From positions 6,728 through 70,727 of IMG/VR virus record IMGVR_UViG_3300045286_000131: DNA of 64,000 bases. One strand, written 5' to 3'. The translations under genes were made by a program, and so were the position numbers. This document shows, one piece after another, positions 6,594 to 39,200 of this stretch (its first letter is position 1; each line of letters opens with the position of its first letter). This stretch comes from a virus. The notes beneath the pieces were generated by a model. The model was not told where the DNA came from. It searched no databases and worked only from the letters and a program-made list of their open reading frames with translations.

Positions 6594-6882
6594 GGACGTA
6601 AAAAAACTTCGCGCGTGGTTAAACCAGCCGGAATTCAAATTGCTTGAGGCGTATCTTGTCGCCAAGGATGCCGAATTTACGGCCGAAGCCGGCAATAAGC
6701 TGATTGGATCTTCCAGCATTGACGGCATTGCCGGCGTGGAGGAAAACGTAAAGGATGCACAGGAATTTGCAGAAAAAGCGCGCACATACCGCGCCGTGAT
6801 TGACGTTTTGCGCGATGTCAAAAATCCTAAAAAAAGCCTTGAAACTCAAAAAGTCGAGCCTACGATAGTCGTAAATACTTAA
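6559..6882 (+). CDS. hypothetical protein
   Basis: 107 aa helical ORF following the portal candidate. Confidence 0.6.
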   Translation: MLNLSPQPPNSEDVKKLRAWLNQPEFKLLEAYLVAKDAEFTAEAGNKLIGSSSIDGIAGVEENVKDAQEFAEKARTYRAVIDVLRDVKNPKKSLETQKVEPTIVVNT

Positions 6883-8419: not shown

Positions 8420-10162
8420 ATGCCAGCCTCACCCTTCCAAAATACACCGTGCAAAGTTGTTGCAACGAACAACTTTGATACCGTCGGCACCATCACCCTC
8501 GCGTCTGTCAGTTGCCTGACGCCTGACCAACTCTCCCAGCTTTTCAAGCCGGGCGGCTTGTATGCCGACATGGACGCTTGGTTTCGCACCAGCTTTGAAA
8601 TGCAGGCGTGCGGTATCAAGTCCAACGGCCTTTACGACTGGCTGATGTCCAGCCGCAAGGACGTGAAGAGTCTCGTTTCGGTTCAGAAGATGGATCGCGG
8701 CCCGTCGCTGCTTTTCCCGTTCGTTCTGGCGCGTCAGGATTCCTTTGTGAACCTCGACTTCTTCGCCATCACGAACGGTTGGCAGAACAACGCCTATACC
8801 GCTGGCGTCACCGGCCCGCTCACTTCCGGCGACCTCGCGCTTGGCGCGACGACCGACCGTGTTATCCGCGTCGTGTCCCGCTACGGCGTTGACCTCGACA
8901 GCAAGTGGTTCCTGAGCCGCGACCGCGTTTACATCTCTAACTTGGCTTCCGGCCAGCGCACCGACGGCCAGTGGAAGGTTCTCGCGTCCGAAGTCTCCGC
9001 CGACAACAGCTATGTTGACGTTCTGGTGGCTTCCGAAAACGCCGGCTCCACCGCCGTTTACGATGCGGCCCCGACGGCCGGCGTCCTCGTTCGCGGCGGC
9101 AACAACGTGAACGACTTCGAGAGCTACTGCGGCAATCGCCCGACGATTGACACCCGCCATCGCGTTCCGTTCTGGTATCAGACCATGCGGCGCGGCCGGC
9201 AGGTGGACAGCGAATACAAGAAGGTTTTCGCGCGGCTCATGGAGTCCAACGAATACTACGCCGAATTCGGCGACCTTCCGTTGGCGGAGCGCAACCGTCA
9301 GGATGAAGCGAACTACCAGAAACAGTGGCTTAACAGCTTCTTCTGGGGCAAGCCGATTTCCGCCAACCAGACCCTCGCCGGCTGGCAGTCGCTCGAACAG
9401 ATTACGTCCGTGACCGGCGCGCACGTTGATCCCGGCTTGGGCGGCAAGCTCGTCGCCTACCGCGCCAACATGATTGGCGTCGTCGAGCAGTTGCGCCGCT
9501 GTGGCCGCGTCTGGGACTTGCAGAACACGTCATTGAATTTCTACGACTTCCTGCAATCCATCTACGAAATCGTCCGCGCCCGCAAGTCGCAGGGCAAGGC
9601 GGCGGATTCGATTGACGTGTTCACGGATTCCGTGACTGCCGCCAACATGGAGTCGGCGTTTATCGCCTACTACAAGAAGGAATACGGCGACATCATCCGC
9701 ATCAACATCGAAACCGGCGGCAACGAATGGGGCTTCCAGTGGCGCTCCTTTACCGTGAAGTTCCCGGCCGGCGTGAAAATCAACCTGATTTCCCACGATT
9801 ATTTCGATGACCTCTACAACGCGCACGTCACCGAAAACTCGGCTGCTGCCGGCCGGTTCCTGATGATTCTGGAAATGGGCAAGCCCGGCCCGCGCGGCGG
9901 CACCATCTATCCCGGCACCATCGCCAGCAACCGCAAGGTTCGCACGCTGGGCGACTTGGAGAAGCTGGCGGCGCTCGACCCGACGTTCGCCTGTGTCATG
10001 GAGCATCCGACCGACGAAATCACGCTCGTCTCGGAAACCGTCACGGCCATTGTGGAATGCCCGCTGAACAACCTCGTCATCCAGTCCATCGGCTCTGGCG
10101 TGCCGGACACTTCGACCGGCTACAACGGCCCGTCGTCTGGCCCGTATCAGCCGCTTTATTAA
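8420..10162 (+). CDS. probable major capsid protein
   Basis: 580 aa, visibly strong codon bias, follows the scaffold and is followed by a strong terminator. Confidence 0.65.
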   Translation: MPASPFQNTPCKVVATNNFDTVGTITLASVSCLTPDQLSQLFKPGGLYADMDAWFRTSFEMQACGIKSNGLYDWLMSSRKDVKSLVSVQKMDRGPSLLFPFVLARQDSFVNLDFFAITNGWQNNAYTAGVTGPLTSGDLALGATTDRVIRVVSRYGVDLDSKWFLSRDRVYISNLASGQRTDGQWKVLASEVSADNSYVDVLVASENAGSTAVYDAAPTAGVLVRGGNNVNDFESYCGNRPTIDTRHRVPFWYQTMRRGRQVDSEYKKVFARLMESNEYYAEFGDLPLAERNRQDEANYQKQWLNSFFWGKPISANQTLAGWQSLEQITSVTGAHVDPGLGGKLVAYRANMIGVVEQLRRCGRVWDLQNTSLNFYDFLQSIYEIVRARKSQGKAADSIDVFTDSVTAANMESAFIAYYKKEYGDIIRINIETGGNEWGFQWRSFTVKFPAGVKINLISHDYFDDLYNAHVTENSAAAGRFLMILEMGKPGPRGGTIYPGTIASNRKVRTLGDLEKLAALDPTFACVMEHPTDEITLVSETVTAIVECPLNNLVIQSIGSGVPDTSTGYNGPSSGPYQPLY

Positions 10163-10177
10163 GCACGCTTCGGATTC

Positions 10178-10208
10178 AAAAACCCCCGGCTTCGGCTGGG
10201 GGTTTTTT
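10178..10208 (+). terminator. intrinsic (possibly bidirectional) terminator
   Basis: AAAAACCCCCGGC-TTCG-GCTGGGGGTTTTTT hairpin with T tract. Confidence 0.9.
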
Positions 10209-10212
10209 ATTG

Positions 10213-10239
10213 TTGACAGCTACGCGACTTGCGTATAAT
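10213..10239 (+). promoter_or_regulatory. sigma70-type promoter for the HTH-GroES-cassette-intI operon
   Basis: TTGACA (10213-18) and TATAAT (10234-39) with a short 15-bp spacer; overlaps near-palindrome TACGCGACTTGCGTA. Confidence 0.6.
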
Positions 10240-10348: not shown

Positions 10349-10534
10349 ATGACAAAGCCGACAAGCAAGAAACGGAACTTCCCGAAGGCGCTGAAAGAGT
10401 GGCGCAAGGGACGCGGATTTACGCAGCAGCAGGCGGCGAAGGTAATCGGCGTCAAGCTTGCCACCTACCGGAATTGGGAGCAGGGCAGAAACCGGCCGAT
10501 TGAGGCGCTGGTTAATTTTCTTTTTCACAAATAA
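10349..10534 (+). CDS. Cro/XRE-family HTH regulator
   Basis: LKEWRKGRGFTQQQAAKVIGVKLATYRNWEQGRNRP. Confidence 0.85.
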   Translation: MTKPTSKKRNFPKALKEWRKGRGFTQQQAAKVIGVKLATYRNWEQGRNRPIEALVNFLFHK

Positions 10535-10538
10535 TTTT

Positions 10539-10853
10539 ATGGCAAAAGTTCCACCAATGCCGAGGCGGCTTTTCGGAAACCGCGTTATTATCGCCGTCAA
10601 ACCTTCGGTTGGCGGATTCATTGTGAAGGATGGCGTTCTTGTTCCGAACCGCGAGGGCGAGTTTGGAAACCCGAACTTCCGCGAAGCAGTCATTGTGATG
10701 ACCGGCGAAGGCATCACCGAAGACCTGAAGCCCGGCGACAAGGTTTGCTGGAACAGTCGTGGCGGAGTTCCGTATCACGGACTGCTTGTGGTGAGCGTGC
10801 TGGACATTGAGTTTGTGATTCCGCCTAACGACAAGCTGAGCGACAGCCGATAA
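10539..10853 (+). CDS. groES: GroES/Cpn10-like co-chaperonin
   Basis: LFGNRVII..GG..VLVP..AVIVMTGEG..LKPGDKV..VLDIEFVI matches the Cpn10 pattern; the last 7 codons and the stop lie in attC-1. Confidence 0.7.
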   Translation: MAKVPPMPRRLFGNRVIIAVKPSVGGFIVKDGVLVPNREGEFGNPNFREAVIVMTGEGITEDLKPGDKVCWNSRGGVPYHGLLVVSVLDIEFVIPPNDKLSDSR

Positions 10854-10949
10854 AACCACATGAACTTTACAGACTTCAAAAAGCCATACGAGGCAACAAA
10901 AGCGTGGCTGCCGCAAGCCAAGGCTGTTCGCTCCGGCGATTTGTTAGAT
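10823..10949 (-). other. attC: attC site 1 (127 bp)
   Basis: + strand GCCTAAC-GACAA-GCTGAGCGACAGCC ... GGCTGT[T]CGCTC[C]GGC-GATTT-GTTAGAT; inverted arms with two extrahelical bases. Confidence 0.85.
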
Positions 10950-11708
10950 GTCCGTCGTATGGCTCAAACATCCATGCTAGATGGCAGGCTAATCGTGTGG
11001 TTTTCAATGGGTGCGGCGTCTGCCTGTATGCTCAAACTTTTGGCGCATCTAAAACCGATGGCTGTCTATTGCAACACGTCAAAAGACGAGCATCCCGACA
11101 ACCTGCGCTTCCGTGGCGAAATCGAACACTGGACAGGAATCAAAGTGACTGTCATCGGCTCGGACAAATACCAAACAACCGATGAAGTCTTTGAGGACAC
11201 GCAATACATGAGCGGTATCGGCGGCGCACGCTGCACAACTGAACTCAAAAAAATTCCGCGTCTGCGCTTCGCGTATGCCGAGGACATCCACTGCTTCGGA
11301 ATGACGGTGGACGAACAAAAACGCATCAAACAATTCGAGGCAAACAATCACGACATGAATCTAGCGTGGCCGCTAGTGACGGCAGGCATGACCAAACACG
11401 ACTGCCTGAAAGAACTAATGATGAATGGCATCGAACTGCCCGCCATGTATCAACTCGGCTTTGAAAACAATAACTGCATCGGATGCGTGAAGGCTCAAAG
11501 CCCCGACTACTGGAACAGAACGCGCAAACACTTTCCAGAACGCTTCCGCCAGCGGGCGGAACAAAGCCGACGACTCGGAGTGAAGCTAGTAAAGCTCCAC
11601 GGCGAACGAATCTTTCTCGATGAACTGCCCGAAAACGAAACTGAAAAACTGTCCGAGGACTTGTCATGCGGCCCGCAATGCGCTGACGCGAGGACATCTA
11701 ACGAATAG
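10860..11708 (+). CDS. PAPS-reductase/PP-loop family protein (cassette)
   Basis: IVWFSMGAASA PP-loop variant, CTTELKKIP, NNNCIGCVKA. Confidence 0.8.
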   Translation: MNFTDFKKPYEATKAWLPQAKAVRSGDLLDVRRMAQTSMLDGRLIVWFSMGAASACMLKLLAHLKPMAVYCNTSKDEHPDNLRFRGEIEHWTGIKVTVIGSDKYQTTDEVFEDTQYMSGIGGARCTTELKKIPRLRFAYAEDIHCFGMTVDEQKRIKQFEANNHDMNLAWPLVTAGMTKHDCLKELMMNGIELPAMYQLGFENNNCIGCVKAQSPDYWNRTRKHFPERFRQRAEQSRRLGVKLVKLHGERIFLDELPENETEKLSEDLSCGPQCADARTSNE

Positions 11709-11804
11709 CTATGCAGCCACCGACCGACCAACTAACGAGCGCAATGGACGTTACCGATTCACGGGGCGCGTCCGCCGGTGGTCTGCATCAGCGTCTTGTT
11801 CCCC
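11696..11804 (-). other. attC: attC site 2 (109 bp)
   Basis: ATCTAAC-GAATA-GCTATGCAGCCACCG ... CGGTGG[T]CTGCAT[C]AGC-GTCTT-GTTCCCC. Confidence 0.9.
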
Positions 11805-12484
11805 AGCCCTTTTACGAGGACTCACATATAACGCTCTACAACGCTGACTGCCGCCAAGTGCTGCCCCACCTGAAAGTCGCCAACGCCTTTTGCTTCACTG
11901 ACCCGCCCTACAATGTCGGCAAAGACTACGGCGTGTGGAATGACGAAATGCCAACGGCTGACTATCTGCAATTCTGCGCCGAATGGATCGCGGAAGTGAA
12001 ACGGCTCTGCCCCGAAGTCTGCATCTACCCGCCGACAAAATACCTGCTCGAATACTGGCAAATGCTTGGACGCGACTACAAGCAAATCGCGCTCACATGG
12101 AGTCCCGAAGGTGCAATCCGTGGCGGCTGGGTGAATCAATTCGTGACGCTGCTGACCAACGCGAAACCGAAACAGCGCACGAAAGACTGGTGGCATAACT
12201 GCCAGATGCAAGGACTCGGCTACTTCTTCCGTGAAGAATCCTACGGGCATCCAGGCTACACCAGTGAGGATGTGACAAACCGCGTGCTGGCGGCCGTGTG
12301 TCCGACGGATGCAACTGTAATCGAACCTTTCGCCGGCACGGGGACAACTCTGTGGTGCGCGAAACTCCGTGGCATGAAAGCCATCGGATGCGAGATAAAC
12401 CCGAAATACTGCGAACTCATAGCCTCACGATGCGCCCAAAGCGTGCTGGGGCTGGGGAACGGCGGAGCTATGCCACGCCAGTAG
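11711..12484 (+). CDS. N4C/N6A DNA methyltransferase, beta class (cassette)
   Basis: TDPPYN (motif IV) precedes EPFAGTGTT (motif I) and GCEIN. Confidence 0.9.
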   Translation: MQPPTDQLTSAMDVTDSRGASAGGLHQRLVPQPFYEDSHITLYNADCRQVLPHLKVANAFCFTDPPYNVGKDYGVWNDEMPTADYLQFCAEWIAEVKRLCPEVCIYPPTKYLLEYWQMLGRDYKQIALTWSPEGAIRGGWVNQFVTLLTNAKPKQRTKDWWHNCQMQGLGYFFREESYGHPGYTSEDVTNRVLAAVCPTDATVIEPFAGTGTTLWCAKLRGMKAIGCEINPKYCELIASRCAQSVLGLGNGGAMPRQ

Positions 12485-12560
12485 TAAAGGAAAACATGAC
12501 AACTCAAAAAAACAAGAAACGGCCAACGCCAAAGGCGTTGGCATCAGCGACTGGTTCGGC
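12454..12560 (-). other. attC: attC site 3 (107 bp)
   Basis: GGGGAAC-GGCGGA-GCTATGCCACGCC ... GGCG[T]TGGCAT[C]AGC-GACTG-GTTCGGC. Confidence 0.9.
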
Positions 12561-12762
12561 ATGGGTGCGCGTAAAAGACAAACTCCCAATGGAATCGGAA
12601 CGGGTCATCGCCATCTATCGCGGCGTGTATCACCACCGCATCGTGACATTCTGGCGTGACGCCGGAGGAACGCCGCACTTCGGACATCCGAGCGAACCGG
12701 ATGGCAAAGGAAGCCAACCCGCAACCCACTGGCATCCGCTGCCGGAAATGCCGAACAGTTAA
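12496..12762 (+). CDS. DUF551-like phage protein (cassette)
   Basis: WVRVKDKLP...ATHWHPLPEMP signature; ATG 12496 preceded by AAAGGAAAAC. Confidence 0.8.
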   Translation: MTTQKNKKRPTPKALASATGSAWVRVKDKLPMESERVIAIYRGVYHHRIVTFWRDAGGTPHFGHPSEPDGKGSQPATHWHPLPEMPNS

Positions 12763-12788
12763 TTGAACAACTCCAACTTTGTTTATTT
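12748..12788 (-). other. attI: putative attI site
   Basis: ATGCCGAAC is complementary to the other end of the first cassette (GTTCGGCAT); no hairpin partner follows; directly 5' of intI; further GTT motifs on the - strand. Confidence 0.7.
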
Positions 12789-13772
12789 ATGACTGCCATT
12801 GAAATGTTGAAAGCTGCCATTGTAGAACAGGCTTGCGATGATGATACGTTTCAGCAATACGCATTTTGGGTTCGGAAGATTTATCATCATTTGAAAATTC
12901 CAGCCTCACAATGGACAACGGTGGACATGAACAAGGGCTTGATGTGGTTGCGGTCGGAAAATTATGCGGATCAGTCCCAGCGGTGCGCCTTGTGTTCGGT
13001 GGTTTTCTTTTTCCGGTATGTTTTGAAGCGCGAACTTGGTCGGCTGGATTTGCCAGCCATGCCCAAGCAGCGCAAGCAACTCAAGGAAGTCCCGACGCGG
13101 GAGGAAGTCGCCAAACTTATCATGCTGTTGCGCGATGAGTTTCGGCTGATGGGCGGTTTGATGTATGGCGGCGGCACTCGCGTAAAAGAAACCTGCAAGC
13201 TGCGCGTGAAGGATTTTGATTTCGACAACTGCGAAATCCGCATCCACAACGACACCGCCAAGGGTAAAAAATCCCGCTTGCCGCCTTTGCCACAAGCGAT
13301 GATTCCAGCGTTAAAGGATTACTTTGACAACAAACGCCGCGAACTCTACGAGCGCGATCTGGCGCAAGGCTGGGGCTTTGTGGAATTACCCGGAAGACTG
13401 GCGAACAAATACAAGTCGGCCAATCGTGAATATGGCTGGCAGTTTGCTTTTCCTTCACGCGCCGTTTCTCCAACTGGATACCGATGGCACATCACGCCGG
13501 AAGCGTTTCAGAACGAACTCCGCAAGGCTCGGCAGATTGCCGGCATCATCAAGCCGGTGACACCCCACACGCTGCGTCATGCCTTCTGCACCCATGCGCT
13601 AGAGAACGGAACCGAGTTTGAAACCGTCCGCAAATGGATGGGGCATGAGGACGCCAATACCACTTTGATTTACGCGCATACCACCAAGCGCGGCGAGTCG
13701 CCGATGGATTTTGGCCGTAACCTACGCCGATTCCAGATGCCGCCGCAAATCACTTTCGACGCCAAAAACTAA
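12789..13772 (+). CDS. intI: integron integrase (tyrosine recombinase)
   Basis: Catalytic R (YGGGTRVKE), K (AKGKK), HTLRH, MGH, TTLIY, plus the IntI-specific insertion DLAQGWGFVELPGRLANKYKSANREYGWQFAFPS. Confidence 0.93.
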   Translation: MTAIEMLKAAIVEQACDDDTFQQYAFWVRKIYHHLKIPASQWTTVDMNKGLMWLRSENYADQSQRCALCSVVFFFRYVLKRELGRLDLPAMPKQRKQLKEVPTREEVAKLIMLLRDEFRLMGGLMYGGGTRVKETCKLRVKDFDFDNCEIRIHNDTAKGKKSRLPPLPQAMIPALKDYFDNKRRELYERDLAQGWGFVELPGRLANKYKSANREYGWQFAFPSRAVSPTGYRWHITPEAFQNELRKARQIAGIIKPVTPHTLRHAFCTHALENGTEFETVRKWMGHEDANTTLIYAHTTKRGESPMDFGRNLRRFQMPPQITFDAKN

Positions 13773-14534
13773 ATGAAAACATCCATCCTGATAGTCACCT
13801 TTCGCAGAGACATTGAGTTCTGCACGTTCGCCCTGAAATCCATCGCCAAGTTTGCGGCCGGATTTTTGGAGACGGTCGTTGTTGTTCCTGAAAGCGACAA
13901 GGAGTTGTTTGGCGCGCTCCACGCGACATATAATTTCAAGCTGCGGCCGGTTCCAGAGCCGGCTGGAAAAGGGATGCTGAACCAAATGCTGGTGAAAAGC
14001 ACGGCGGATAGTTTCTGCCCGCAAGCGGATTTCATTTTGCATTTCGACAGCGACTACATTTTCACCGCGCCAGTTACGCCGGAAACTTATTTTCGGGACG
14101 GCAAGCCGGTTCTGGTTTGCAACCCGTATGAAAACGTGACCGAGGCCGGACACCGGCAATGGCAGCGGGTGGCTCAAAACGCCGTCGGGTTTGCGGTTCC
14201 GTTCGATACCATGTGCCGCCTGCCGATTATCCACTTGGCGGAGGTTTACCCGAAGCTGCGGGCGCACGTCGAGAATCACACCGGGCTTCCGCTTGAGGAA
14301 TTCATCATGGGCGGGCGTGCCGAGTATCCGCAATCATATGCGGAATTTCCGACCATTGGCGCGATTGCGCTTCATTTCTTCCGCGACGAATACACAGTCG
14401 TTGACCTGTCCAAAGAGCCGGAGCCGAAAAATCCAATCATGCGCGGATGGAGTCACGGCGGCATGGATCACGAAATGCTTTTTCAGGACGGTGAAACGAC
14501 GACTGCGCGGAAGAAGTGGGCGCAGTATCTTTGA
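13773..14534 (+). CDS. GT-A fold glycosyltransferase-like protein
   Basis: SILIVTF..D N-terminus and ILHFDSD DxD motif. Confidence 0.65.
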   Translation: MKTSILIVTFRRDIEFCTFALKSIAKFAAGFLETVVVVPESDKELFGALHATYNFKLRPVPEPAGKGMLNQMLVKSTADSFCPQADFILHFDSDYIFTAPVTPETYFRDGKPVLVCNPYENVTEAGHRQWQRVAQNAVGFAVPFDTMCRLPIIHLAEVYPKLRAHVENHTGLPLEEFIMGGRAEYPQSYAEFPTIGAIALHFFRDEYTVVDLSKEPEPKNPIMRGWSHGGMDHEMLFQDGETTTARKKWAQYL

Positions 14535-26179: not shown

Positions 26180-26222
26180 GTTTTGATTGATTTCGCGGGA
26201 AAACGAAGGCATAACATTCCTT

Positions 26223-29200
26223 ATGCCGCTACCGGACTTCGATTCACTTCAGCCAGCAACGGAATCTCCATCGAAACCGGCGGAAAAATTGTCGCCGGAT
26301 TTTGAATCGCTGAAGCCGGCACCGGACTTCGATTCGCTCGCGCCGGCAGATGCGGAAGGCGAGAAACCATCGCCCCTCAAAATTGCAGCCAAGCCCGTTC
26401 CGCGCTCAAGCGAAGAGTTGGGCGCTCAAAACTTTGCCGGTGAATCATCCGTCATCAAAGACATCAAGCCCGCATTCATTCAGGCGATGCAGCAGCACGT
26501 TAAGACGCCCGAAGACAAGGCGCGTCTTGACGCATTGGTGAAGGCCAAGTTCGACACCGAGAAGCTTCCCAGATCCGGCGTTGTTGGTGATGCCGTTACG
26601 GCTGCGATGCAAGGCCCGTTTGAGGCGCTTGGAGACATGAAAAAGTTCGCCGACGTTGAATCGCTTTGGAACGAACGCGAACAGCAGCGCAAGCTTTACA
26701 ACCAGACCGTTGAAAAATACCACGACCAATTAACCAAGGATGGAAAAGCGCCGAGCGAACTGGAGCCGCCGTCGGCAACCGACAAAATCGGCAGGCTCGC
26801 GTTTGGTGTGGCGCACGGCGCGGCCGGACTTGGCGACTTCATCGCGTCTCCATTCGGCGTGATAACCGGCGAGCTTTCGGCGATACCGGAAACGGCGCTG
26901 GCAAAATCTCCGCTGGCAAGAAACGCCGTGAATGTCGTCCAGAACGCTTTCAGCCTTGGATTCGGAGCGCAGATGGCAAGCGCGCTGCCAGCGGAGGTTT
27001 CCGAGCTTTACGACGAGGCAATGAAGCCGGAAAAAGACCGCGATTGGGCGAAAGTTGGCGCGCTGGCAATCTCGACGGCGACGACTCCGTTTTTCGCAAA
27101 GATGGCGATTCAGCACGGATTGCGGACGAAGCTCGACCGTGTTTACGCGCAGTTGAATGAGCAGGTTTCCAACACACAGCTTGACCCGCGCTTTGCCTAC
27201 GGGGCCGGCTTCGGAATTCCAGCGCCGCAAAAAGCAGCGGTCGAAAAAAGCCAGCCTCAAACCGAATGGTATTTCGATCCGAAGACGGAAAAACTTTTTC
27301 GAGTCCTAAACCTATCAACCAAGAAAGGAGCGCAAAATGCCCCTGATACAATCGTCGAGCCGCCAAGCGTTCAGCAGGAACGTGGCGGAATTAATGAAGA
27401 GCGGGAAACGTCCACAGAAACAGGCGGTGGCAATCGCCTACCGGGTGAAGGAGGGGGTGAAGAACCACCGCAAGTCGTCACTCCGCCGCAAGAAGAAAAG
27501 CCGGCGCTAAACGAGCGCGACAAAAAGATTTTGGTGCCGCTAACACGCGAGCGCAACCGGCTCGTCATGGAAGGCGCTTCACAGGTTGACCCGCGCGTAG
27601 TCGCATTGGACGCGCAGATAAAACATCACCTTGAAGAGAATCGCCAGACAGCCGCAAACGAAATTGAGATGGCTTCCGTAAAGCCGGAAGACATTCAAAG
27701 CCTTCGGCTCACTCCCGCGTTGATGGTGGATGGAAAGCCGGTGACTGGCGGGGCAAACCACAACGCAATCTACGAAAAGCTTGTGGCCGAAGCCAAGGCG
27801 CGCGGAAGCAAGTCGGCGGAAGCGGACGCGCACGAAGCGAAGCTGGATGACAGCGCGCACGTTTTCATTGACCGCGCCGGCAGGATTCAAACCCGCGAAA
27901 CCGCCAAGCCGATTCTGTCCAAGATGCTTGGCAAGGAAATCACTGACCCGGTTCACAGTGAGATGATACCGGACAGGTTTAAGGATTTGCCGAAGCCGGC
28001 GGAGCCATCTGGAAACATCCTTCCAAAATTTGACGAGCCAAAAAAAGGCATCTCGACATGGTATTCCGGCGGCTCCGAAGAGGCGGAGGGTGGGATTGGT
28101 GATTTCTGGCTGGCGAGCGACAAGGAAACTGCCGACGCGAGCGCGCGTCGAAAAGGAGGCACCACAAAGCAATATGCGGTGGATACTTCCGGCTTTCAGG
28201 TTAAGAAAATCCCAAAGAAATATGACCCTACGGATTGGCTTGATGGAACCGACCATGAAGCAGTTGAAAAAGCTAGGGAATCTGGCAAAAAAGGAATTGT
28301 TGTTACAAACGGCAAAGATTCGGTTGTTGTTGTGTTTGAGGGAAACGCGGAGCTTGTAAAACCAACCCAAGAATCTTCCCCCGCTTCAACGCCCGTTCTC
28401 CCGGCTCCCCCGGTCGCACCGGCAGTCGAGCCAACTAAAGGGATTGAGGCGGGGACTCCGCCTTCGGAAAAGAAAACACAGGAAGACGTCGTTCGCGAAG
28501 CGTTGCAGTCCGGCCCGAAGTCGCTCAAGCAGCTTGCGGACGAACTGGACATCATCAACCACAACATCCGCCGCATCCTTGGCGTCGGCGCAAAGGCCGG
28601 AAAGTTTGAACGCATTGCGAGAGGTGTTTACGCGCTCAAAAACAAAAACGGCTCGTATATCTACGCGCAGTCCACCGACGCGATACTGGCAATGCCGGAA
28701 CTGGCCGCGCGAGGCGTGAAGGCGGATTTTCTTTTTCTCGACCCGCCCTACAAGACGGCGGCTATCATGGGCGGCAATCGCGGCATCAAGGCATACGCGA
28801 TGATAACGCCGGAAGACTTCAACAAGATTGTCGCGGCGGCGAAGGTGATGATGCGGACTCCCGACTCGCCGGTTTATTATATGTATTCGCAGGCTCCATC
28901 CGGCCTGAAGGATATGCAGAAATACACCGACGCATTTGTTCAAAATGGTTTTACGCTGGTGGCAAAGGGCGGATGGACGAAGACTTTCAAGGACGGCAGG
29001 CCGGTGACGAATGTTCGCGGCAAGGTTTCAGAGCCGGAGGGAATCGCGCTGTTCACGCTGTCTGGAAAAACCGACGCGAAGCCGCTGCCGTCGCTGAACT
29101 TCAAATCCGTTCGCCCGCCGGTTGCCGGCGAAGGCGGCAGGCAGTCGCAAAAGCCGACGGAACTTTATTCCAAGTTGATTGGATTTCACGCCGACGAACT

Positions 29201-31655
29201 GCCGCCGGAGAAGCTGCCGGTTTTTGTGACCGTTGATCCGTTTGCCGGGGCCGGCGGATTGGCGGCGGCATCGCGGGAAAAAGGCGTGTCGAATGTTTCG
29301 CTGGAAATGGACGAGGATGCCATCCAGAAATTTATCATCCCGAAGGTGGAGGCCGCGAAGGAGCCGGAAGGCAATTACGTCGAGCCAACGACAGAACCGG
29401 CACCAAAAGGAGTCCGCGTTCAATACAAGAAAAAGGATGGAACATGGGCGCTGGGGACAACGCTCGGTGAAAAGTTCACTTCCGGCGGCTACGGTGAAGA
29501 CAGGTTTACGCAGCAAAAAATTCAGCCCGATGAAGGCTCTGAATTCTACGCGCTTGAGTCCGAACTGAAGCCGGCTGAGGAAGCAGCGGCAGCGCCGGTC
29601 GGGCAACCAAAGGGTGAATCAAAGCCGGCTATCTTTTACAAGGGCAAGGTTTACACCGGAGAAACGATTGACGCCGCAATCAAGGCGGCAAAGAAAAAGC
29701 TCGGAATTCCTGCCTCGCGAGGGATTAAGGGTGTTCGCCGGGGAACGGTTGATGCCGCCGGAAACTTTGCCGCCAGCGAGCCGAAGCAGGTAGAAAAAAA
29801 ATTCTCCGTCAAGCCCGGTGGGTTGACTGAAGCCGACGGCGACCTGTTTGCAATCGTTCACGACTTTGGAAAAATACCGATATTCATTCCCGACGGCGCG
29901 ATGAAGTCGCAATACCTGCGAATCAAGCGCAACCTTGCAACGGGAGGGGTTTTGTCCCCGAAGGACAGAAATCTTTGGGAGCGGCTGCAAAACATCTTCC
30001 CCGACGACTACGAGGATGTCTGGGGTGTGCGCGGTGAAAAGTCGAGGGCGGCATACGATGCCGCCAAAAAAGCTGGGATTGAAAACGAAATTTTCACCGT
30101 CGTTAAGAGCGCCAAAAAAGGCCAACTGGACGACCACTTGGACTTTATCCGCAATTTGCGCGGGAAAGATTTCTCCGCCGAAGACCTTTGGAATTTGATT
30201 GAGGGCCGGAGCGCCGCGCACTTAAAGGCCAAGCAGGGCGGGGAAGGAAAAATCGCTTCAGATGAAGACATCGCGGAGGCGGATGACAAGCTTCATGCAA
30301 GCATGGAGGAACCGATTGAGCCGGGTGAGGAAAATCTTGGCGACGTTGAATTCCTGCCGCCGGAAGAGTCGTCCGGCCAAGAAAAGCTAACGCCGAAAGC
30401 TTCGGAGCAGGCTTACGAGTCGTTGATGTATCTGGCGCAACAAATGAAGTCGGCGCGTGAAAGCGAAGCCACAGTCAAAAAGTTTGTCGAGGATGCGATT
30501 GCGGAAGGACAGTTGCTTGAGCCGGAAATCCAAGACGCGAAAAGGGTTCTTGAAAACTGGTATCCAAAGATGACTGAACCGCCGGCCGAAACGGAGCAGC
30601 AGCGAATCGAACGCGAGGGGAAAGAGGCATCGTCTCGCATTTCTGAAATGTTTCAAAAGCGGGAGCCGATGAAGCCCGGCGACAAAGTTTCGTTTTCCGG
30701 CGGCGACAAATGGCACGCGGACGTTTCGGGAACGGTTTTCGCAGTCCACAACGAGGGCAGAATTGTTGACGTTCAGCCGGAAGGCGCGCGTGCCGGCAAC
30801 ACAGTCCGAATCAATCTCAGCGACTACGGTGAATCCAAAGTCATTCCGCCGGAGCCGGCCAAGCCGGTTGCCCCCGATTTGTTTGGCGAAGTTGAGTCGC
30901 CAGTTCCGGCGGGCCAAGCCGAGTTCCGCCGCACGCCCGACACTATCAACGAGATGTCCGAGCAGCCGGAGCATTGGGAATATCGAATCCGCCAGTTGGA
31001 CTATGACGAGGCGCGCAAACTGTTTTCGACCGACTTCACGCGCAACGCCATCGGCTATATTGACAAGCCTTGGATCGTGGAAAGCCGCCGCGTTCACGGC
31101 AACCAAGTCCACGACTGGTTTGCGATGTCTGCCGGCCGGACGAAAGCGGACGCAATTTCCGGCATCGGCAAAAACGAAGAGGTTTTTGGGACGATTGGAA
31201 AAGCCGGCGACAACTTCGGCAAGGCGACGGAAATCAAGCCTTTGGCCAAGGAGGAAATCAACGCGCCAAAGCCGGTGGAGGTTCGACCGCTGACCAAGGA
31301 CGAGCAGGAGGAGCTTTGGTCGTTGCGAAAAAAATACGCGGCGGCGCGCGACGAGGGAGCGCCGGGATTGACCGCCGAAGAGTCTCGCCGGATGGAATGG
31401 CTTGAAGCCACCGGAGGCCAGCAGGAACTAATGCCGGTTAAGGCGACCGTGAACGCGCAGGCGGAGGTTTCGACGCATTGGGAAAATGTCGCCGACTTGG
31501 TTGGAGAATACAAAAGCGGGAAGGAGTTTCGCGAGGATTTTGAAAAGAACAGTCTCGCGGAACACAACGAGACGGAAACCGAATACCTAAATTACAAGTT
31601 TTGCAAGGCCAAGAATCCGGTCGTGAAGAAGGGCAAGCTGCGCGCATTGGAGTGA
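26223..31655 (+). CDS. giant polyvalent virion protein with DNA amino-methyltransferase and ART-like domains
   Basis: N-terminal PDFDSL repeats; LFLDPPY (about 28740) and DPFAGAG; WYSGG..FWLASD..GKKGIVV..VVVF resembles ART-PolyVal. Confidence 0.75.
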   Translation: MPLPDFDSLQPATESPSKPAEKLSPDFESLKPAPDFDSLAPADAEGEKPSPLKIAAKPVPRSSEELGAQNFAGESSVIKDIKPAFIQAMQQHVKTPEDKARLDALVKAKFDTEKLPRSGVVGDAVTAAMQGPFEALGDMKKFADVESLWNEREQQRKLYNQTVEKYHDQLTKDGKAPSELEPPSATDKIGRLAFGVAHGAAGLGDFIASPFGVITGELSAIPETALAKSPLARNAVNVVQNAFSLGFGAQMASALPAEVSELYDEAMKPEKDRDWAKVGALAISTATTPFFAKMAIQHGLRTKLDRVYAQLNEQVSNTQLDPRFAYGAGFGIPAPQKAAVEKSQPQTEWYFDPKTEKLFRVLNLSTKKGAQNAPDTIVEPPSVQQERGGINEERETSTETGGGNRLPGEGGGEEPPQVVTPPQEEKPALNERDKKILVPLTRERNRLVMEGASQVDPRVVALDAQIKHHLEENRQTAANEIEMASVKPEDIQSLRLTPALMVDGKPVTGGANHNAIYEKLVAEAKARGSKSAEADAHEAKLDDSAHVFIDRAGRIQTRETAKPILSKMLGKEITDPVHSEMIPDRFKDLPKPAEPSGNILPKFDEPKKGISTWYSGGSEEAEGGIGDFWLASDKETADASARRKGGTTKQYAVDTSGFQVKKIPKKYDPTDWLDGTDHEAVEKARESGKKGIVVTNGKDSVVVVFEGNAELVKPTQESSPASTPVLPAPPVAPAVEPTKGIEAGTPPSEKKTQEDVVREALQSGPKSLKQLADELDIINHNIRRILGVGAKAGKFERIARGVYALKNKNGSYIYAQSTDAILAMPELAARGVKADFLFLDPPYKTAAIMGGNRGIKAYAMITPEDFNKIVAAAKVMMRTPDSPVYYMYSQAPSGLKDMQKYTDAFVQNGFTLVAKGGWTKTFKDGRPVTNVRGKVSEPEGIALFTLSGKTDAKPLPSLNFKSVRPPVAGEGGRQSQKPTELYSKLIGFHADELPPEKLPVFVTVDPFAGAGGLAAASREKGVSNVSLEMDEDAIQKFIIPKVEAAKEPEGNYVEPTTEPAPKGVRVQYKKKDGTWALGTTLGEKFTSGGYGEDRFTQQKIQPDEGSEFYALESELKPAEEAAAAPVGQPKGESKPAIFYKGKVYTGETIDAAIKAAKKKLGIPASRGIKGVRRGTVDAAGNFAASEPKQVEKKFSVKPGGLTEADGDLFAIVHDFGKIPIFIPDGAMKSQYLRIKRNLATGGVLSPKDRNLWERLQNIFPDDYEDVWGVRGEKSRAAYDAAKKAGIENEIFTVVKSAKKGQLDDHLDFIRNLRGKDFSAEDLWNLIEGRSAAHLKAKQGGEGKIASDEDIAEADDKLHASMEEPIEPGEENLGDVEFLPPEESSGQEKLTPKASEQAYESLMYLAQQMKSARESEATVKKFVEDAIAEGQLLEPEIQDAKRVLENWYPKMTEPPAETEQQRIEREGKEASSRISEMFQKREPMKPGDKVSFSGGDKWHADVSGTVFAVHNEGRIVDVQPEGARAGNTVRINLSDYGESKVIPPEPAKPVAPDLFGEVESPVPAGQAEFRRTPDTINEMSEQPEHWEYRIRQLDYDEARKLFSTDFTRNAIGYIDKPWIVESRRVHGNQVHDWFAMSAGRTKADAISGIGKNEEVFGTIGKAGDNFGKATEIKPLAKEEINAPKPVEVRPLTKDEQEELWSLRKKYAAARDEGAPGLTAEESRRMEWLEATGGQQELMPVKATVNAQAEVSTHWENVADLVGEYKSGKEFREDFEKNSLAEHNETETEYLNYKFCKAKNPVVKKGKLRALE

Positions 31656-33289: not shown

Positions 33290-36200
33290 ATGATTCTCGC
33301 TTGCCCAAACATACGTCTCCCCGAATGGCAATCGCTCGAAAAAGAGCTTGGCGAGCGCCGCGCGTATCTCGCATTTATTCGCAACGGGCATGACATCCCG
33401 ACGGCAGGCAAGGCGAGGGAAATTTTGGGGATGAAGTCGGCGGAAAAGCAATTAGGCTGGTCAAAGGAAATCCAAAATCACCTTGCCACGCTTGAGCGTT
33501 TTGAGCGCGGTGAATTGCATTCCCAGCCCGGCGAGGTTGGAACATTTCGCTCGCAAATCGAAAATGAAATGTGGGCGCAAATGCAATCAGGAGGTTTTAC
33601 GCCCGAAATGGAAAAACAATGGGACAGACTTAACAGGCTTTTGCCAGAGCCGAGGCAGGAAAAGCCTTCCGTAGTCAAATCCAATGACGTTACCCCCACT
33701 CAAAAGCCAGTTGAGGACACCATCGAATCCGTCGCCGCGTCCTACGGCCAGACGATTCAGGATGGCGCAATGTATAACCGCAAGGGCAACAAGGTTGCGG
33801 ACATCAAGATTTCAAAAGGCCGGATGCGCTTCCTTGCGCCGGACGACGGGCATCAAATGGGCAGCATCCCCGAAGGCGACGTGAAGATGTTTGAGCGCGC
33901 CCTGAAGGAAAACTTTTACGCGCAGAAAACCCCGTCGCTATTGGATTATGCAAAATCAAAGCTGCCGCACGAAACCGCCGACAAAATCACCAGCGAGTCA
34001 CAGGTTGAATCCCACCGCGCACAGTGGGAAAAGGATTACCCGCGCATCGCTCCTGCAAAGCCTGAAGACAAGCTTTCTGGCCTTGCCAAGCGTCTTCTGG
34101 CCCTGCCTGCTGAACGGCGGGTGTATCCAATGGGGGACGAGAACACTTCGCTGCGACAGGATGTTTTAGAGGCGCTGACCGGCACGCGACCTCCGCGCGC
34201 CAAGGCCGGCGCTACGGCCGTCCGTTCCGCGCTGGCGAAGCATTTTGGCGTGGACGAAACCAAGCTGTCACAGGCCGGCGTTGAGGATGAAGTTGAAGCC
34301 AAGCTGCGCGAGTTGGCCGGGGAAAAGCCTGCGTCAACCACTTCCGAGAAACGGGTTGACGCAACGGTTTTTCCGCCAAAGCCGTTCATCGGAAAGAAGA
34401 CCGACGCCGAGGCCGGCGAAAACATTTTCAAGACGTTTCACGCGAAGCTCGAAGCGTGGGAGAAAAACGTCGGCGAATGGCTTAAAACCAAGCCGGAGAA
34501 CAAGCCGATTATTTGGGAGCAGGAAAATGGAAATGTCCGCGCGCTCACCCGCAACATCGGCAACCTTGAAAAACCGTGGCGCGTCACCAGCTTTGTTCCG
34601 AGCAGGGATGGAAACGCTTTGATGCCGTGGGGCCATCAGGAATACGAGACGCGCGAAAAGGCGATGATTGAGGAAGGCGGAACGCCGGCAAGGTTTCACG
34701 ACAAGATGCCGAAGCGTGTCATGGACGAGCAGGAGATTCAGGGCTACAAGCTCATGGCCGACGTGCCGGACAAGTCGAGTCTGGCGTGGTATAAGGTGAA
34801 GCCGGGCGCGCAGTTCAATTCTGAAAAGATTCGCGGTTCTACCATCATGGGGACGTTCGTGAAGGATTCGATGACCGGAGACGGCAAAATCGCGTTTACG
34901 AGTCCGATCCCGACCGACGACCCGGAGCGACTGAACTGGCTGGGGCTTGAGCCGACGGATTCCCCTGAAAGTCTTTCCATCAATCCGCCGAAGACGCCGG
35001 AGGACATCAACCCGAAGCCTGTCCCTGTTGACGACATCGGCCCGCTAAAGGCTACGGCCAGCGACAAGGCGGTTATTACCTTTGGCGACGACAAAACTGT
35101 TCGCGCGGCCAACCCTGAAATCTCCCTTGTGATTTCGGCCGGCGCAAAGCACTTCACGCTCTGGCTTCAGGATAACCGGCCCGGCAAGTCGCGGCGCTCC
35201 GACTACCTGACCATCCTTGGGCAAAACAAGGAAGAGGCGATTGCCCGCGCAAAAAAAGTTGCGGACAAACTGGCCGTTGGCGATGTCACTGGCATTGCAT
35301 TTTTCGGGAAGCAAAAATGGGAGCAGCCGAAATCCATCGGCATTTTTGACACGCCGGTTACTTCCGACCAACTCATGTCGCGCGACCTGACGCCGGTTGG
35401 AGAACAAGTGATTGGATTCGGCAAGATGGCCGGGACGCGCGTGAAGGATGTCTGGGCCAAAGACCCCGGCTGGGCGCTTTGGGCGGCGGAAAACATGACC
35501 AGCGGCAAGAATGCGCCGATTGGAAACTATCTCCGCAACCATCCTGAATACCAGATTGCGAAGGATGCCAAGACGGCGGAGATTGAGGAAAACAAAGGCG
35601 CGGCGATTGACGCCGTTACGCCGGAAGTTTTGAACACGCTTCAGGCGCACAAGCTCGGAGCGGAAGCAACCAACGACGGATTTGTTAAAATCACAGGAGA
35701 AACTTATGACTGGAAAGATTCGATTAAAGCCATCCAAGGCCGGCGCTGGGACGATGTTGAAAAAGCGTGGAAGCTCCCCGTCGCCGGGTTTAACGAATTT
35801 GTCCGAAAGCTCGCCGGACTCCCCAGACCAGATGCAAAGCGACAAGGCGCTGGCGTTCCAAAATATCTCCGCGATGAACGACTCGGAACTGTTAGAAAAA
35901 ATGCTGACGCACGGCCCGACCGCAGCGGATTCACGGACGCTATCGGAAACCATATCGGAGACGATACAAAAGCCCTTGTCTCGCGCGGGCTGAAAATCGG
36001 GATGCCGCAATTCGTGGTGGACGAGCAGGTTGAAGACGTTGCCAGAATCAACCGCGCGTTCAAGGACGGAAAAAAACTTTTCATTCTGGCGAGCGAGCCG
36101 GGCAGCGGAAAAACATTTGTGCTGGGCGGAGCAATCCGCGAGATGAAAAAGGCCGGCGCGAAAAACATTGTTTACGTCACGCTTCGCAAGGAACTCATTT

Positions 36201-39200
36201 CGCAGATTCAGCATGACTTGGCCGACTTCGGAATTGACGATGTAAAATTCATCACTTACCCGGAGATGCGGAAGGCTCCGCCGGCAGAGTCCGACGTGCT
36301 AATTTTCGACGAGGCGCACGCGATTAAAAACGTCAAGGATGCGGAGGAAGGCGGCGCGCAGCAGGCGAAGAAGGCGGCGGAATGGATCAGTAAGGCGAAG
36401 TTCACCATCCTGTCTTCGGCTACCCCGTTCGAGAATCCGGTGCAAGCCATGTATCTCGAACCTACCGGAATCTTCAGTGAAGCGTTTGGTGATGCCAAGA
36501 CGTTCGCCGAGGCTTACGGCGCTTCATCCCGCACGTTCAAGGTGAGGACAAAATACGGCGAGATTGAAAAGACGGAACTTTACTGGAAACGCACGACCAC
36601 CAGTGACGTTGACTCCAAGGCTGTCCGCGAATTCTTCCGCAAGGAAGGCGTGTTTACGTCGCGGAAAATCCGGTTGCCCGCCGGCTCCGCAGACTCGCGC
36701 ATGGTGAGCATCACCGTTTCCGAAGCGGCGGCAAAGGTTTACAAGGGATTCGACGAGGCGGCGGAAGAGCGCGAAGACCAGCTTCCGAAAATCGCCGTCA
36801 TGTGGGTTACGAATTTCAAAAAGCGGCTGCTTGAGGCGGCGAAGGTTCAAAAGGGAATTGAAGAGGCCGACGACGCTATGAAGCGCGGGCGCTGGCCGAT
36901 TCTGTTTGTCGAGACGAAGGCGGAGCGCAAGTTCGACATACCGGAGATTCTTGCCAAGGAAGAGGAATACAAGGCGGCTTGCGCCATTGTTGCCGCACAG
37001 CGCCAGCGTGGCAGCGACGAGCAATACCCGAAGCGTTCAGACTACGGATTACCGCCGGAAGGCATCCCCGAAGTCTTGGGTGAGTTCATGGAAAAGACCG
37101 GGCTGAAGACCATTGAAATCCCGTCGGCAATGGACATCATCCTAAAGCATTTCGGCGAGAAGAATGTCGCGGTGTTTACCGGCGACGTGACGCCGGCCAA
37201 GGCGCAGGAAAATCTTGACCGCTGGCGTGCGGCGAAGAAGCCGATGGTGATTCTGGCGACGATGGCGAAGGGCGGCACAGGGCTTTCCCTGCACGACAAG
37301 GTTGGCGACCACCAGACGACCCAAATCAACATCAACCTTCCGTGGACGGCAACGCAGGTTGTTCAAGTGGCGCAACGCTCTGCCCGCTACGGCATCAAAG
37401 GCAAGGCGGAGATGCAATGGATTTTCGCTGACAACATTCCCTTTGACCGCGCGCTTTCAAACCGCGTCGGCGGGCGCATGGCCGACATGGGCAGCGTCGT
37501 TCACGGTGCGGAACTGGAAGGCGCGTCCAACATTGAAGACTTTAATTTCGAGGACAAGCCTTTCAGCGAAGTGAATCAGGAAATCAGGGATGAAAATTCT
37601 GGGTCGAGCAAAAAGCAGGGAAAACTTCCGTTCAAGGGAGTTGAAAAGATTGTCGCCGCCGCCGTCAAGGACGCGGAAAGTGGCGAGGTTGAAACCGCAT
37701 CGCATCACGGCTATTTGGAGGGCATTGACGACTCTGAAAAGGAAGCCGGGTTTTATACTTCGCACAATCGTTTTGTTTCGCGGCGCGAGGCATACAAGAT
37801 TGCCAAAAATGCCGGGCAGTTGGTGAAAGGCGGAGGATGGTCGGATTCGACCGGCGTTCTTCATTCCGAGGACGTGGTAAATATGCCGCTTACCGACAAC
37901 CGGAAGTTTCTTGAATCAAGGGTTTCACCGCCGGCACAAGATGAAATTCACGGCCCGCTTTCGGCGCGCGAAACGCAGTCGTATCTTTACCGCAACTACG
38001 GGCTTCAGCCGAATTCAATGGCTGTTTTGCTTTTGCGGGATAGTAGCGACAAGGGCGATTGGGCTGGCCGCGCCGTATTCGACAAGCCGGGCGGGAGGTT
38101 TCTCCGCATCGAATACAACATGGACAAAATCACTTCAGCCGAGCAGTTGAAGTGGACGACCGAGCATGAAGTCGCGCACGTTGCGGTTGAGGACGGTTCG
38201 ATGCAGCAGGCGTTGGCTCTGGTAACGCGCGAAGAGATGTCTGGAATAATGCAGGACATTGCCGACGCCGACTACAAGCCGAGTGAATACTACGACGAGC
38301 AAAATGCGCGCGGGTTGCAGGCGCTAGTTCAATCGTGGCGCGGACGCAACTGGTTTGAAAAAGCCGTTGGAGCAGTCACCTACATTGCCAGCAAGGTTGG
38401 ATTGAAATTGAACCGGCTTTCGGCCGAGCAGGCGGCGGTCGTCGCGTGGAGCCGCGCGCTAGACAAGGTTAAATCGCAGCGCCCGGAGTTCACGGCGAGG
38501 GAGAAGCAAATACAAGAGGCCGGAAGGTTTGAAGACGTAAGCCAGCCGGGAACGAAAACCAGCTACGCCAAGACGCCGGAAGCCGGCGGTGAGCCGGAAC
38601 GCATTCCAACACAGATTGCCGGCGTCGAGACGCACGTTTTGGGACGCGACCAGTTGACCAAGGAAGACCGCAATGCTTCCGACGCCTACGCTGTTCGCGT
38701 GATGTCGGGGTTTAAGCTCCCCGGCTCCGCCGATCCGTTTTACGGCTTCAAAATCCAAGGCGACGGATTCAACTACGACGCCGAGGGCGAGATGCTTTTG
38801 GCGCGATTAACCAAGGACATCGTTGAAAAAGACCGGCCGGGCAATTCGTGGGTTAATTCCACCGGAATCATCAACGCTCTGAAGCTGAATTTCAACGCCG
38901 GCAACCTTGACGATGTTTTCTCGCCGGAGATGAAATACAAGCTGATGTCGGTCGCACAGGGAGAATCCAGCCGGCGCGGCATTGAGCTTGCGGCGTTGAA
39001 AGGTTCACCGGAGGACTTGCGCGGTGTTGCCCGCAACGCGGACTTCTATCTCCGCCGGACGTATGACGACGCCTTTGGCGGGCCGGAAGTCAAAAACCTG
39101 ATTGAGCGGATTTTCCTGAATTTCCGCGACCACTTCACCGACAAGGAAATTGATGATGCGCGCAGGTCGTTTCCCGCATTGGACGAAACTTTCAACCGCA

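Follow-up and report, generated by a model that had tools for sequence, protein, structure and literature searches.

Integrons are understood as bacterial devices in which promoterless cassettes, coded on the top strand, are expressed from a cassette promoter, Pc. Here we describe an integron that lies inside a phage genome, in a 64,000-nucleotide stretch of viral DNA (positions 6,728 to 70,727 of the IMG/VR record IMGVR_UViG_3300045286_000131; this whole stretch is called the window, and positions are counted from its first letter). It carries cargo genes whose coding strand is the attC bottom strand, and the predicted recombination point falls within their codons. Inverted-integrase integrons, of which those of Treponema are an example, have a layout of their own. 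In these, intI is inverted relative to both the array and attI, with cassettes of the canonical kind, as set out in the sections of PMC13323075 that treat this type.

The nearest precedent for an open reading frame (ORF) that overlaps a crossover is ORF-11 of attI1. According to the passages of PMC8876359 that deal with them, ORF-11 and ORF-18 of attI1, like short ORFs of attC sites, cross the crossover and take their stop from the inserted cassette, the ribosome restarting nearby. In those passages ORF-11 borrows an in-phase stop from its neighbour, as the genes of the window do, but it is a single small top-strand leader ORF that aids the first cassette. In the window the crossing is done by the cargo genes themselves, wherever they stand in the array; they lie on the other strand and favour a single frame.

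Integrons and clusters of attC sites lacking integron-integrases (CALINs) have been reported in phages, with integrases, attC sites, cassettes and DNA methyltransferase cargo (Qi et al. 2023, PMC9892861). The main passages of that paper count three complete integrons and one In0 among 10,705 genomes, the complete ones being described as class 1 mosaics or as parts of host integrons that were captured. The same passages hold nothing on a reversed coding strand, on the frame of junctions or on starts within attC, a statement that does not extend to the supplements, which may list ORF orientations. Nor did we find bottom-strand-coded cassettes or a junction frame rule described in the literature outside subscription journals. 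Phage integrons and methyltransferase cassettes have thus been reported already, and it is the bottom-strand coding and the frame rule that appear to be undescribed.

A regular-type integron inside a phage genome

The genome to which the window belongs is a single contig of 70,727 nt. Family searches identified among its products a large terminase subunit, tail and virion proteins, a DnaB-like helicase and an exonuclease; the genome is therefore that of a phage. Nucleotides 10823–13772 of the window are a complete integron of the regular type, whose cassettes, attC sites, attI-like site and integrase gene are listed in Table 1.

The recombinase has TIGR02249, ‘integron integrase’, as its top NCBIfam match (E 1.6e-70), and the whole of the protein can be aligned with the structure of IntI4 (PDB 2a3v, E 2.4e-44). 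The alignment runs through the IntI-specific insert (residues ~190–222) that separates IntI from the Xer recombinases. The closest named integrase in the protein search was that of Prosthecobacter, at 46% identity. When 18 IntI relatives were aligned, the invariant residues included R131, H260, R263, H286 and Y295 (window numbering), which are presumably part of the recombinase catalytic set. Among the integrases of the phages in PMC9892861, the window IntI is closest to intI1 of the Escherichia phage P1 record (35.7%), followed by those of a Vibrio phage (35.3%) and a Shewanella phage (31.1%).

We derived an attC architecture from elements of the window and of two related loci, L002 and L004, and scanned for AAC, a spacer of 4–6 nt, a stem of 3 + 6 + 5 bp with two 1-nt bulges on its 3′ arm, a second spacer of 4–6 nt and GTT (total length 105–127 nt). 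Over both strands of the whole genome, exactly three sites matched with at least 13 of 14 pairs; all were on the + strand, contiguous and directly 5′ of intI. Among 60 shuffled genomes five had one match, and the mean was 0.08. A gapless repeat finder had missed these stems because of the bulges. The predicted fold reproduces the long stem at several of the sites, among them the methyltransferase attC. In the DUF551 attC a perfect 9-bp hairpin (12522–12542; GCCAACGCC AAA GGCGTTGGC) competes with the long stem in the predicted fold, and it also scores as terminator-like on the − strand.

In all three window cassettes the inner GTTNNNN box is the reverse complement, at 7/7 positions, of the box that ends the same cassette (GTTAGAT/ATCTAAC, GTTCCCC/GGGGAAC and GTTCGGC/GCCGAAC), which is expected if the ends of a cassette join in a circle. 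Two of three L002 cassettes follow the rule as well. For L004 we took the second occurrence of the heptamer (513–519, at the attI junction) as the matching box, in preference to that at 383–389. Box complementarity was also tried as a test of orientation and was dropped, the rule being symmetric.

For calibration we ran the scanner on L200, a class 1 integron that has intI1 on the + strand, and dfrA12 and aadA2 on the − strand. It found three sites there, all on the strand of intI1 and with T and G as bulges, and each of them touches or overlaps an annotated cassette ORF at its end. What the scanner marks is therefore the bottom strand of attC. Seen in this way, intI and the attC top strand lie on opposite strands in the window, the arrangement that PMC13323075 defines, in its methods, as regular. 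By their Pfam domains the three cargo genes are read from the attC bottom strand, in the direction of intI; canonical integron cassettes have the reverse orientation. Top-strand cargo downstream of a Pc in intI/attI was accordingly not what we found in the window: the cargo is on the bottom strand, and only 33 nt separate the attI crossover from the ATG of intI. Each cassette opens with its attC, whose loop contains an ATG, and closes with xxxxAA; its gene therefore comes without a stop of its own.

With class 1 and other regular integrons, the window shares an IntI with the family insert, an attI directly 5′ of intI, attC bottom strands on the intI strand, AAC/GTT boxes, an unpaired spacer, extrahelical bases on the bottom strand and complementary cassette boxes. 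It differs from them in that the cargo is on the bottom strand, starts in attC and has the crossover inside its coding sequence, that the 33 nt leave no visible room for Pc or an integrase promoter (Pint), that the second bulge is C and not G, and that the element is in a phage. Inverted-integrase integrons likewise have cargo co-directional with intI, but the window combines a regular platform with flipped cargo. A second set of viral loci (L150–L158) has the inverted-integrase layout, with attCs downstream of intI on the opposite strand and very uniform arms (CGTTACCYGC..); all 11 of their cassettes had the longest ORF on the attC top strand.

We also considered the canonical orientation, in which the + strand would be the attC top strand, each ORF would be followed by its own attC, the crossover would be at G/TT of the inner box (here and below the slash marks the crossover), and the leader would come from the previous cassette. 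An ORF followed by an attC is indeed the textbook order, and the symmetric box complementarity is blind to orientation. The scanner, however, needs bulges on the 3′ arm and marks the intI1 (bottom) strand in the class 1 integron, the breakpoints described below fall at AAC and not at GTT, and the platform fits the regular type as defined in that part of PMC13323075. The canonical arrangement would, moreover, leave no attI beside intI and deprive a moved cassette of its start codon. We therefore regard it as very improbable, and refer to the + strand as the bottom strand in what follows.

Crossover and reading frame in related arrays

Close integrase relatives were found on only three other contigs, L001 (94% identity), L004 (90%) and L002 (85%). 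The metagenome scan contributed one close locus, L004, the others that it returned (L005–L007) being distant and unused, and a scan of genome contigs with IntI gave only L121, a distant partial match. The DNA that the window shares with L001, L002 and L004 starts exactly at ..AAC AGT TAA TTG AAC.., 33 nt 5′ of the intI ATG, with unrelated genes upstream in all four, as would be expected of an attI. The box to the left of the breakpoint reads GCCGAAC, GCCTAAC, GTCTAAC and CCCTAAC in the four loci, and a second lineage (L130, L132, L134 and L160) breaks at the same AAC. In L002, the first 33 nt of the contig repeat nt 1781–1813, the 33 nt before the breakpoint, and the two copies diverge right after AACA. 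Contigs from three other metagenome runs end or diverge exactly at 12756. As judged from these sequence comparisons, the crossover is at AA/C on the coding strand, with which both the breakpoints at AAC and the divergence at 12756 agree.

The cassettes may be mobile one by one: methyltransferase homologues differ in their tails and leaders, and L002 contains a duplicated cassette end. L002 and L004 hold elements similar in sequence to the junctions of the window, for example ..GGCTCCGGCGAYTKGTTAG.... Other metagenome contigs match only 11698–11800 or 11700–11787, that is, the methyltransferase attC, with unlike flanks, and the DUF551 body alone, up to 12756, is common to contigs with other flanks. 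In an aquatic metagenome the attC type at 11698–11800 is present on no fewer than 11 contigs, and it is on one more contig of the likely source sample (runs X1 and X3), in all of them with unlike flanks. An all-against-all blastn comparison revealed no whole cassette, even a near-identical one, common to two sequenced arrays. Querying IMG/VR with a 16-mer of attI, which was too unspecific, returned at least 113 stretches, and the extended attI motif occurred only on contigs already known.

These observations bear on the possibility that the array is a fossil, captured once and now immobile, with the IntI-like enzyme acting as a lysogeny integrase or a dimer resolvase. Such a history would accord with a recombinase that scores under the curated integron-integrase cut-off (see below), with only three other close contigs, and with there being no reads seen that join alternative junctions, in data that consist of contigs only. 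It is improbable, because four phages whose IntI proteins are 85–94% identical have different genes at the same attI, box complementarity is perfect in the three window cassettes, other metagenomes contain this attC type, and the DUF551 body, with other flanks, and the five residues presumed to be catalytic are invariant in the 18 relatives.

At the crossovers of the window, four of four ORFs read AAC as Asn. The flanking ORF at the distal end (10539–10853) finishes CCT AAC GAC AAG CTG AGC GAC AGC CGA TAA. The PAPS-reductase-family gene finishes TCT AAC GAA TAG, with the AAC at 11700–11702 and the TAG at 11706–11708, in the next attC. The methyltransferase gene finishes GGG AAC GGC GGA GCT ATG CCA CGC CAG TAG, with the AAC at 12458–12460 and both the tail GGAMPRQ and the stop from the next attC, and the DUF551 gene finishes CCG AAC AGT TAA, with the AAC at 12754–12756 and the Ser and TAA from attI. 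In each case the stop lies two to eight codons on, in the neighbour. A preliminary description of this DNA, made from the letters alone, had listed these four ends, and had proposed that the crossover AAC is always an in-frame Asn codon, with the stop provided by the adjoining att site. All four ends are as written there, the sites are genuine attC and attI sites beside an integron-type integrase, and the stops do lie within the next attC or attI. Four in-frame AACs alone are nevertheless weak evidence: the genome has 78 crude ORFs, and 15 of these have an in-frame AAC among the last nine sense codons, where codon usage would give a proportion of 0.24.

We therefore turned to relatives. Further IMG/VR loci were retrieved with the alignment of IntI relatives, and in 39 related loci the attC scanner gave 39 matches in 376,513 nt, with arrays beside intI. 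Group A comprises loci that resemble the window in having the array 5′ of intI and on the strand of that gene (IntI identity to the query mostly 44–50%, 37–39% in L136 and L143–L146, and a partial match in L159); group B comprises the inverted-integrase loci L150–L158. Calling the coding strand by the longest ORF was dropped as noisy in GC-rich loci, and instead the open frame upstream of each junction was measured in all three phases. This gave 60 junctions in 18 related loci, 47 of which were informative (upstream open frame of at least 60 codons).

AAC was a codon (frame 0) in 36 of the 47, well above the one-third expected by chance that the preliminary description had offered as a check (binomial p 1.6e-9, a value to be read with the shared ancestry of the loci in mind, since their junctions are not fully independent). 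Frame 1 was used in 10, six of which end at the TAA of YTAA/C, and frame 2 in one, with a TGA in the box. A frame-0 stop followed the AAC within 1–20 codons at 54 of the 60 junctions. The group B control was unbiased, with frames 0, 1 and 2 at three, one and four of its eight informative junctions (20 in all). The four unrelated ORFs that precede the shared attI, in the window and its three close relatives, all end N-S-stop.

An ordinary compact phage operon with four Asn codons near its gene ends and no att sites was initially the favoured model. It drew on weak folds, on the 19% of crude genome ORFs with an in-frame AAC in their last nine codons, and on RYYYAAC, for which the window shows no enrichment (104 matches versus 97 ± 9) and which fits exactly at two of four junction sites, and at the outer boxes of two of three attCs. 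This chance model was dropped after the comparison with relatives. It is contradicted by the attC scan, the shuffles, the box complementarity, the class 1 calibration, the methyltransferase tails (below) and the frame test, and we now give it next to no credence. That the window contains a real integron with in-frame AA/C junctions is, in our view, very likely.

Tails, leaders and possible restarts at the att sites

The contribution of att sites to the predicted proteins is seen in the methyltransferases. That of the window and the homologues P0121, P0122 and P0128 all end ..L-x-N and then GGAMPRQ, AESSHHAGSR, ALREPPATNDK and DRA, respectively; ordinary homologues are of 215–225 aa, start M-x-PYY (residue 31 of the window protein) and lack the N. 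The N-terminal extensions of the window protein and of the three extended homologues are mutually unrelated, and one of them contains ..VGSGDLLA.., resembling the leader of the PAPS-family gene in the window. In the window methyltransferase the attC-encoded extension is of 30 aa, and there is no start codon between attC and the conserved core; the start must therefore be in attC. The ATG of the DUF551 gene, in the attC loop, follows an SD-like (Shine–Dalgarno-like) AAGGA. The PAPS-family ATG is in the attC loop too, with an alternative in-frame start, Met34, at 10959, 10 nt past attC.

The gaps from stop to next ATG in the window are 6, 2 and 11 nt. We surveyed 23 cassettes with a frame-0 ORF, and the first in-frame ATG was inside attC in 14 of them, with gaps of −22 to +9 nt, five of these being 4-nt ATGA overlaps with the upstream stop. 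In two of the 23 the frame was open upstream of attC, and it is its open upstream frame that places the DUF551 cassette of the window outside the 14. A stop near or overlapping the next start, as coupled translation would have it, is thus present both in the window and in 14 of 23 cassettes overall.

We consider the best explanation to be a phage integron with bottom-strand cargo and Asn-locked junctions, and think it likely to be correct. The + strand of the window is the recombinogenic attC bottom strand, with the cargo genes coded on it. A cassette then carries a start in the attC loop and a gene body, and the crossover cuts the gene a few codons before its end, both being consequences of bottom-strand coding. 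The crossover AAC is read as Asn, with the last one to seven residues and the stop coming from the 5′ arm of the next attC or from attI, each of which closes this frame within a few codons. The frame-0 stop is usually followed by the ATG of the next gene within ~10 nt, or overlapped by it as ATGA. IntI presumably moves cassettes by the normal attC × attI reaction, and selection would maintain the Asn phase and a phase-0 stop in each attC 5′ arm and in attI; with such a frame lock, any cassette in any position would be correctly terminated. Transcription would run from upstream of the array, through the cassettes and into intI.

A ribosome that terminates in the 5′ arm of the attC hairpin in the mRNA may melt it and sit by the next start, allowing termination–reinitiation. 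This would suit a host and a phage that barely use Shine–Dalgarno sites: among 36 well-defined window genes, only four have an SD-like motif. Most window starts are preceded by A/T-rich stretches, and these, with the scarcity of SD motifs, suggest a host in which initiation is SD-independent.

A number of observations weigh against this explanation. The recombinase scores 238 bits against the TIGR02249 cut-off of 265, and 160 bits against a cut-off of 435 for PRK15417. The attC scanner was made by ourselves and is not a standard attC model. The minimum-energy fold gives the expected long stem at only some sites, and 146-nt DNA folds are no more stable than those of shuffled sequences at three of four junctions (z for the two strands of each junction, −0.4/−0.9, −0.4/+0.1, −2.1/−1.9 and −0.6/−0.6). 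The longest ORF was on the opposite strand in 12 of 34 cassettes of group A and the window lineage, mostly as near-ties in GC-rich DNA. Phage identity is established for the window genome only, the related loci being IMG/VR contigs. The promoter-like sequence upstream of the array (Table 1) was missed by a scan that required a spacer of 16–18 nt, its own being 15 nt, and none of the sequencing runs listed for the window stretch is on record as RNA.

The frame and the leaders have their exceptions as well. At seven of the 47 junctions the gene stops inside the box, and at four it reads through in another frame, so that the ‘always’ of the preliminary description has to yield to a strong preference. 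The first in-frame ATG lies past attC in seven of the 23 cassettes, 13 to 404 nt beyond the upstream stop. Most PAPS-family homologues begin 2–10 residues before residue 43 of the query, matching Met34; the leader of this protein may thus be untranslated and the gene could start just after attC. At L002:60–146 and L002:1306–1392 the attC ‘leader’ is a separate 28-aa mini-ORF and not an N-terminal extension. One L002 mini-ORF ends in an ATGA overlap with the cargo gene, an ORF for a DnaJ-type zinc finger (1389–1601); between the end of the other and the ATG that follows are 37 nt. The preliminary description had the next ATG inside the same attC, 2–11 nt after the stop, with the rest of attC translated as a leader. 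The distances and the placement are correct for the window, and the placement does not extend to all cassettes; translation of the leader is to be expected for the methyltransferase and is doubtful for the PAPS-family gene.

In an alternative scheme the integron is real and the frame is an insurance for termination only: selection would remove cassettes that run on into a neighbour or into intI, the short gaps would be ordinary phage packing, and neither reinitiation nor the hairpin would have a role. At the attI of the window frame 1 is open for 339 codons, in frame with intI, and frame 0 closes after two. Tight spacing or overlap of genes is widespread in the genome (e.g. at 18562 and 13773), and the starts that lie past attC are as distant as stated above. 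Yet frame 2 also closes within four codons, at the window attI and at several attCs, and it is coding at only one of 47 junctions. The five ATGA overlaps and the 14 ATGs in attC beside a stop, among 23 cassettes, likewise speak for more than insurance, and an SD-poor genome is the setting in which coupling would matter. We think insurance alone rather unlikely. As to whether translational coupling is the selected function, the sequence data leave us evenly divided.

Surrounding genes, cargo and implications

Table 1. Features of the integron and of its surroundings, by window position; the slash in a sequence marks the crossover.
Feature	Position	Strand	Remarks
Large ORF	8420–10162		Without family match
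Intrinsic-terminator-like hairpin, strong	10178–10207	+	13-pair stem, then T run; 3′ of ORF 8420–10162
Promoter-like sequence	10213–10239	+	TTGACA, 15 nt, TATAAT; perfect hexamers directly after the terminator; read by eye
Gene for helix-turn-helix (HTH) protein	10349–10534		In co-directional small-gene run
Flanking ORF, 104 aa	10539–10853	+	3′ end crosses distal half-site GCCTAA/C; tail DKLSDSR and stop from first attC
attC of PAPS-family cassette	10823–10949	+ (bottom strand)	Outer box GCCTAAC 10823–10829; crossover between 10828 and 10829; inner box GTTAGAT 10943–10949
Stem of this attC	10823–10949	+	GCTGAGCGACAGCC / GGCTG-T-TCGCTC-C-GGC; 14/14 pairs; bulges T, C on 3′ arm
Cassette 3, distal	10829–11701	+	873 nt; from C after AA through next AA
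PAPS-reductase-family ORF, 282 aa	10860–11708	+	Pfam PF01507, E 1.6e-5
attC of methyltransferase cassette	11696–11804	+	Outer box ATCTAAC 11696–11702; crossover between 11701 and 11702; inner box GTTCCCC 11798–11804; 14/14 Watson–Crick pairs; bulges T, C
Cassette 2	11702–12459	+	758 nt
N6/N4 DNA methyltransferase ORF, 257 aa	11711–12484	+	Pfam PF01555, E 2e-20
attC of DUF551 cassette	12454–12560	+	Outer box GGGGAAC 12454–12460; crossover between 12459 and 12460; inner box GTTCGGC 12554–12560; 13/14 pairs; bulges T, C
Cassette 1, beside attI	12460–12755	+	296 nt
DUF551 ORF, 88 aa	12496–12762	+	Pfam PF04448, E 3.8e-7; domain from residue 22
attI-like site	12750–12788	+	Box GCCGAAC 12750–12756; crossover between 12755 and 12756; then conserved AGTTAATTGAACAA..AACTTTGTTTATTT to intI ATG
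Integron-type tyrosine recombinase, 327 aa	12789–13772	+	NCBIfam TIGR02249; PDB 2a3v

The terminator-like hairpin is the upstream border of an island of small genes that contains the integron, and the promoter-like sequence directly after it could drive this co-directional island, including the cassettes and intI.

The ORF that precedes the array was labelled GroES, and treated as a cassette gene, in the preliminary description. The label lacks significant support, and the ORF is probably not a cassette. Its Pfam Cpn10 match has E 0.1 and 13.1 bits (cut-off 21.1), and it has no significant family in Pfam, NCBIfam or PHROGs. The attC scan found no site 5′ of it, and its sole homologue, P0242 (59% identity), ends ..LDLEFKIV, which leaves the window protein with ~10 extra C-terminal residues (PPNDKLSDSR). 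This ORF is probably a phage gene that flanks the array, the latter having been inserted into its 3′ end; on comparison with P0242, its PPN-DKLSDSR tail is the distal half-site and the first attC arm.

On the other side of the integron, the stop of intI and the start of the next gene run together as TAAATG (from 13770). The product of that gene (13773–14534) has a weak DUF6492 match (E 3.6e-4), under the cut-off. Two giant + strand ORFs are found in the structural region, at 26187–31655 (1822 aa) and 33290–42994 (3234 aa).

To characterize the cargo beyond the window, ten of the longest cassette ORFs from relatives were run against Pfam. Five had clear DNA-modification domains: a C5 DNA_methylase in L133, N6_N4_Mtase in L002, L160 and L125, and Mom in L143. 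One of the others matched Methyltransf_11 at threshold, and four had no match. Cargo with a family match thus consists mostly of DNA-modification genes. The Mom-family gene (L143:141–737) is in the cassette adjoining the IntI relative and stops at the TAA inside the box AGATAA/C.

Methyltransferases, Mom and a PAPS-reductase-family enzyme as cargo suggest an anti-restriction bank that could be shuffled. Chromosomal integrons are seen as banks of anti-phage defences in the part of bioRxiv 10.1101/2024.07.02.601686 that bears on this, and the phage cargo would mirror them. We tentatively envisage, at rather less than even confidence, a phage-borne lineage of integrons with ‘antisense’ cassettes. 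In this lineage the hairpin would serve as recombination site, upstream terminator and start or leader, the Asn would lock the frame, and the stored DNA-modification genes would be the phage counterpart of the defence ‘biobanks’.

For those who annotate such arrays, the finding is a warning that the 20–30 N-terminal residues and the C-terminal tails of the products are att-site sequence and not part of the protein family. More generally, we have here a phage lineage with an integron of its own, a flipped coding strand, the recombination point inside codons, and a frame rule followed at 36 of 47 junctions. It would extend the isolated precedent of ORF-11 to a general design, and it offers a testable grammar by which site-specific recombination could shuffle protein-coding modules without breaking their translation. 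The nature of the cargo suggests that, through such integrons, phages swap counter-defence genes.

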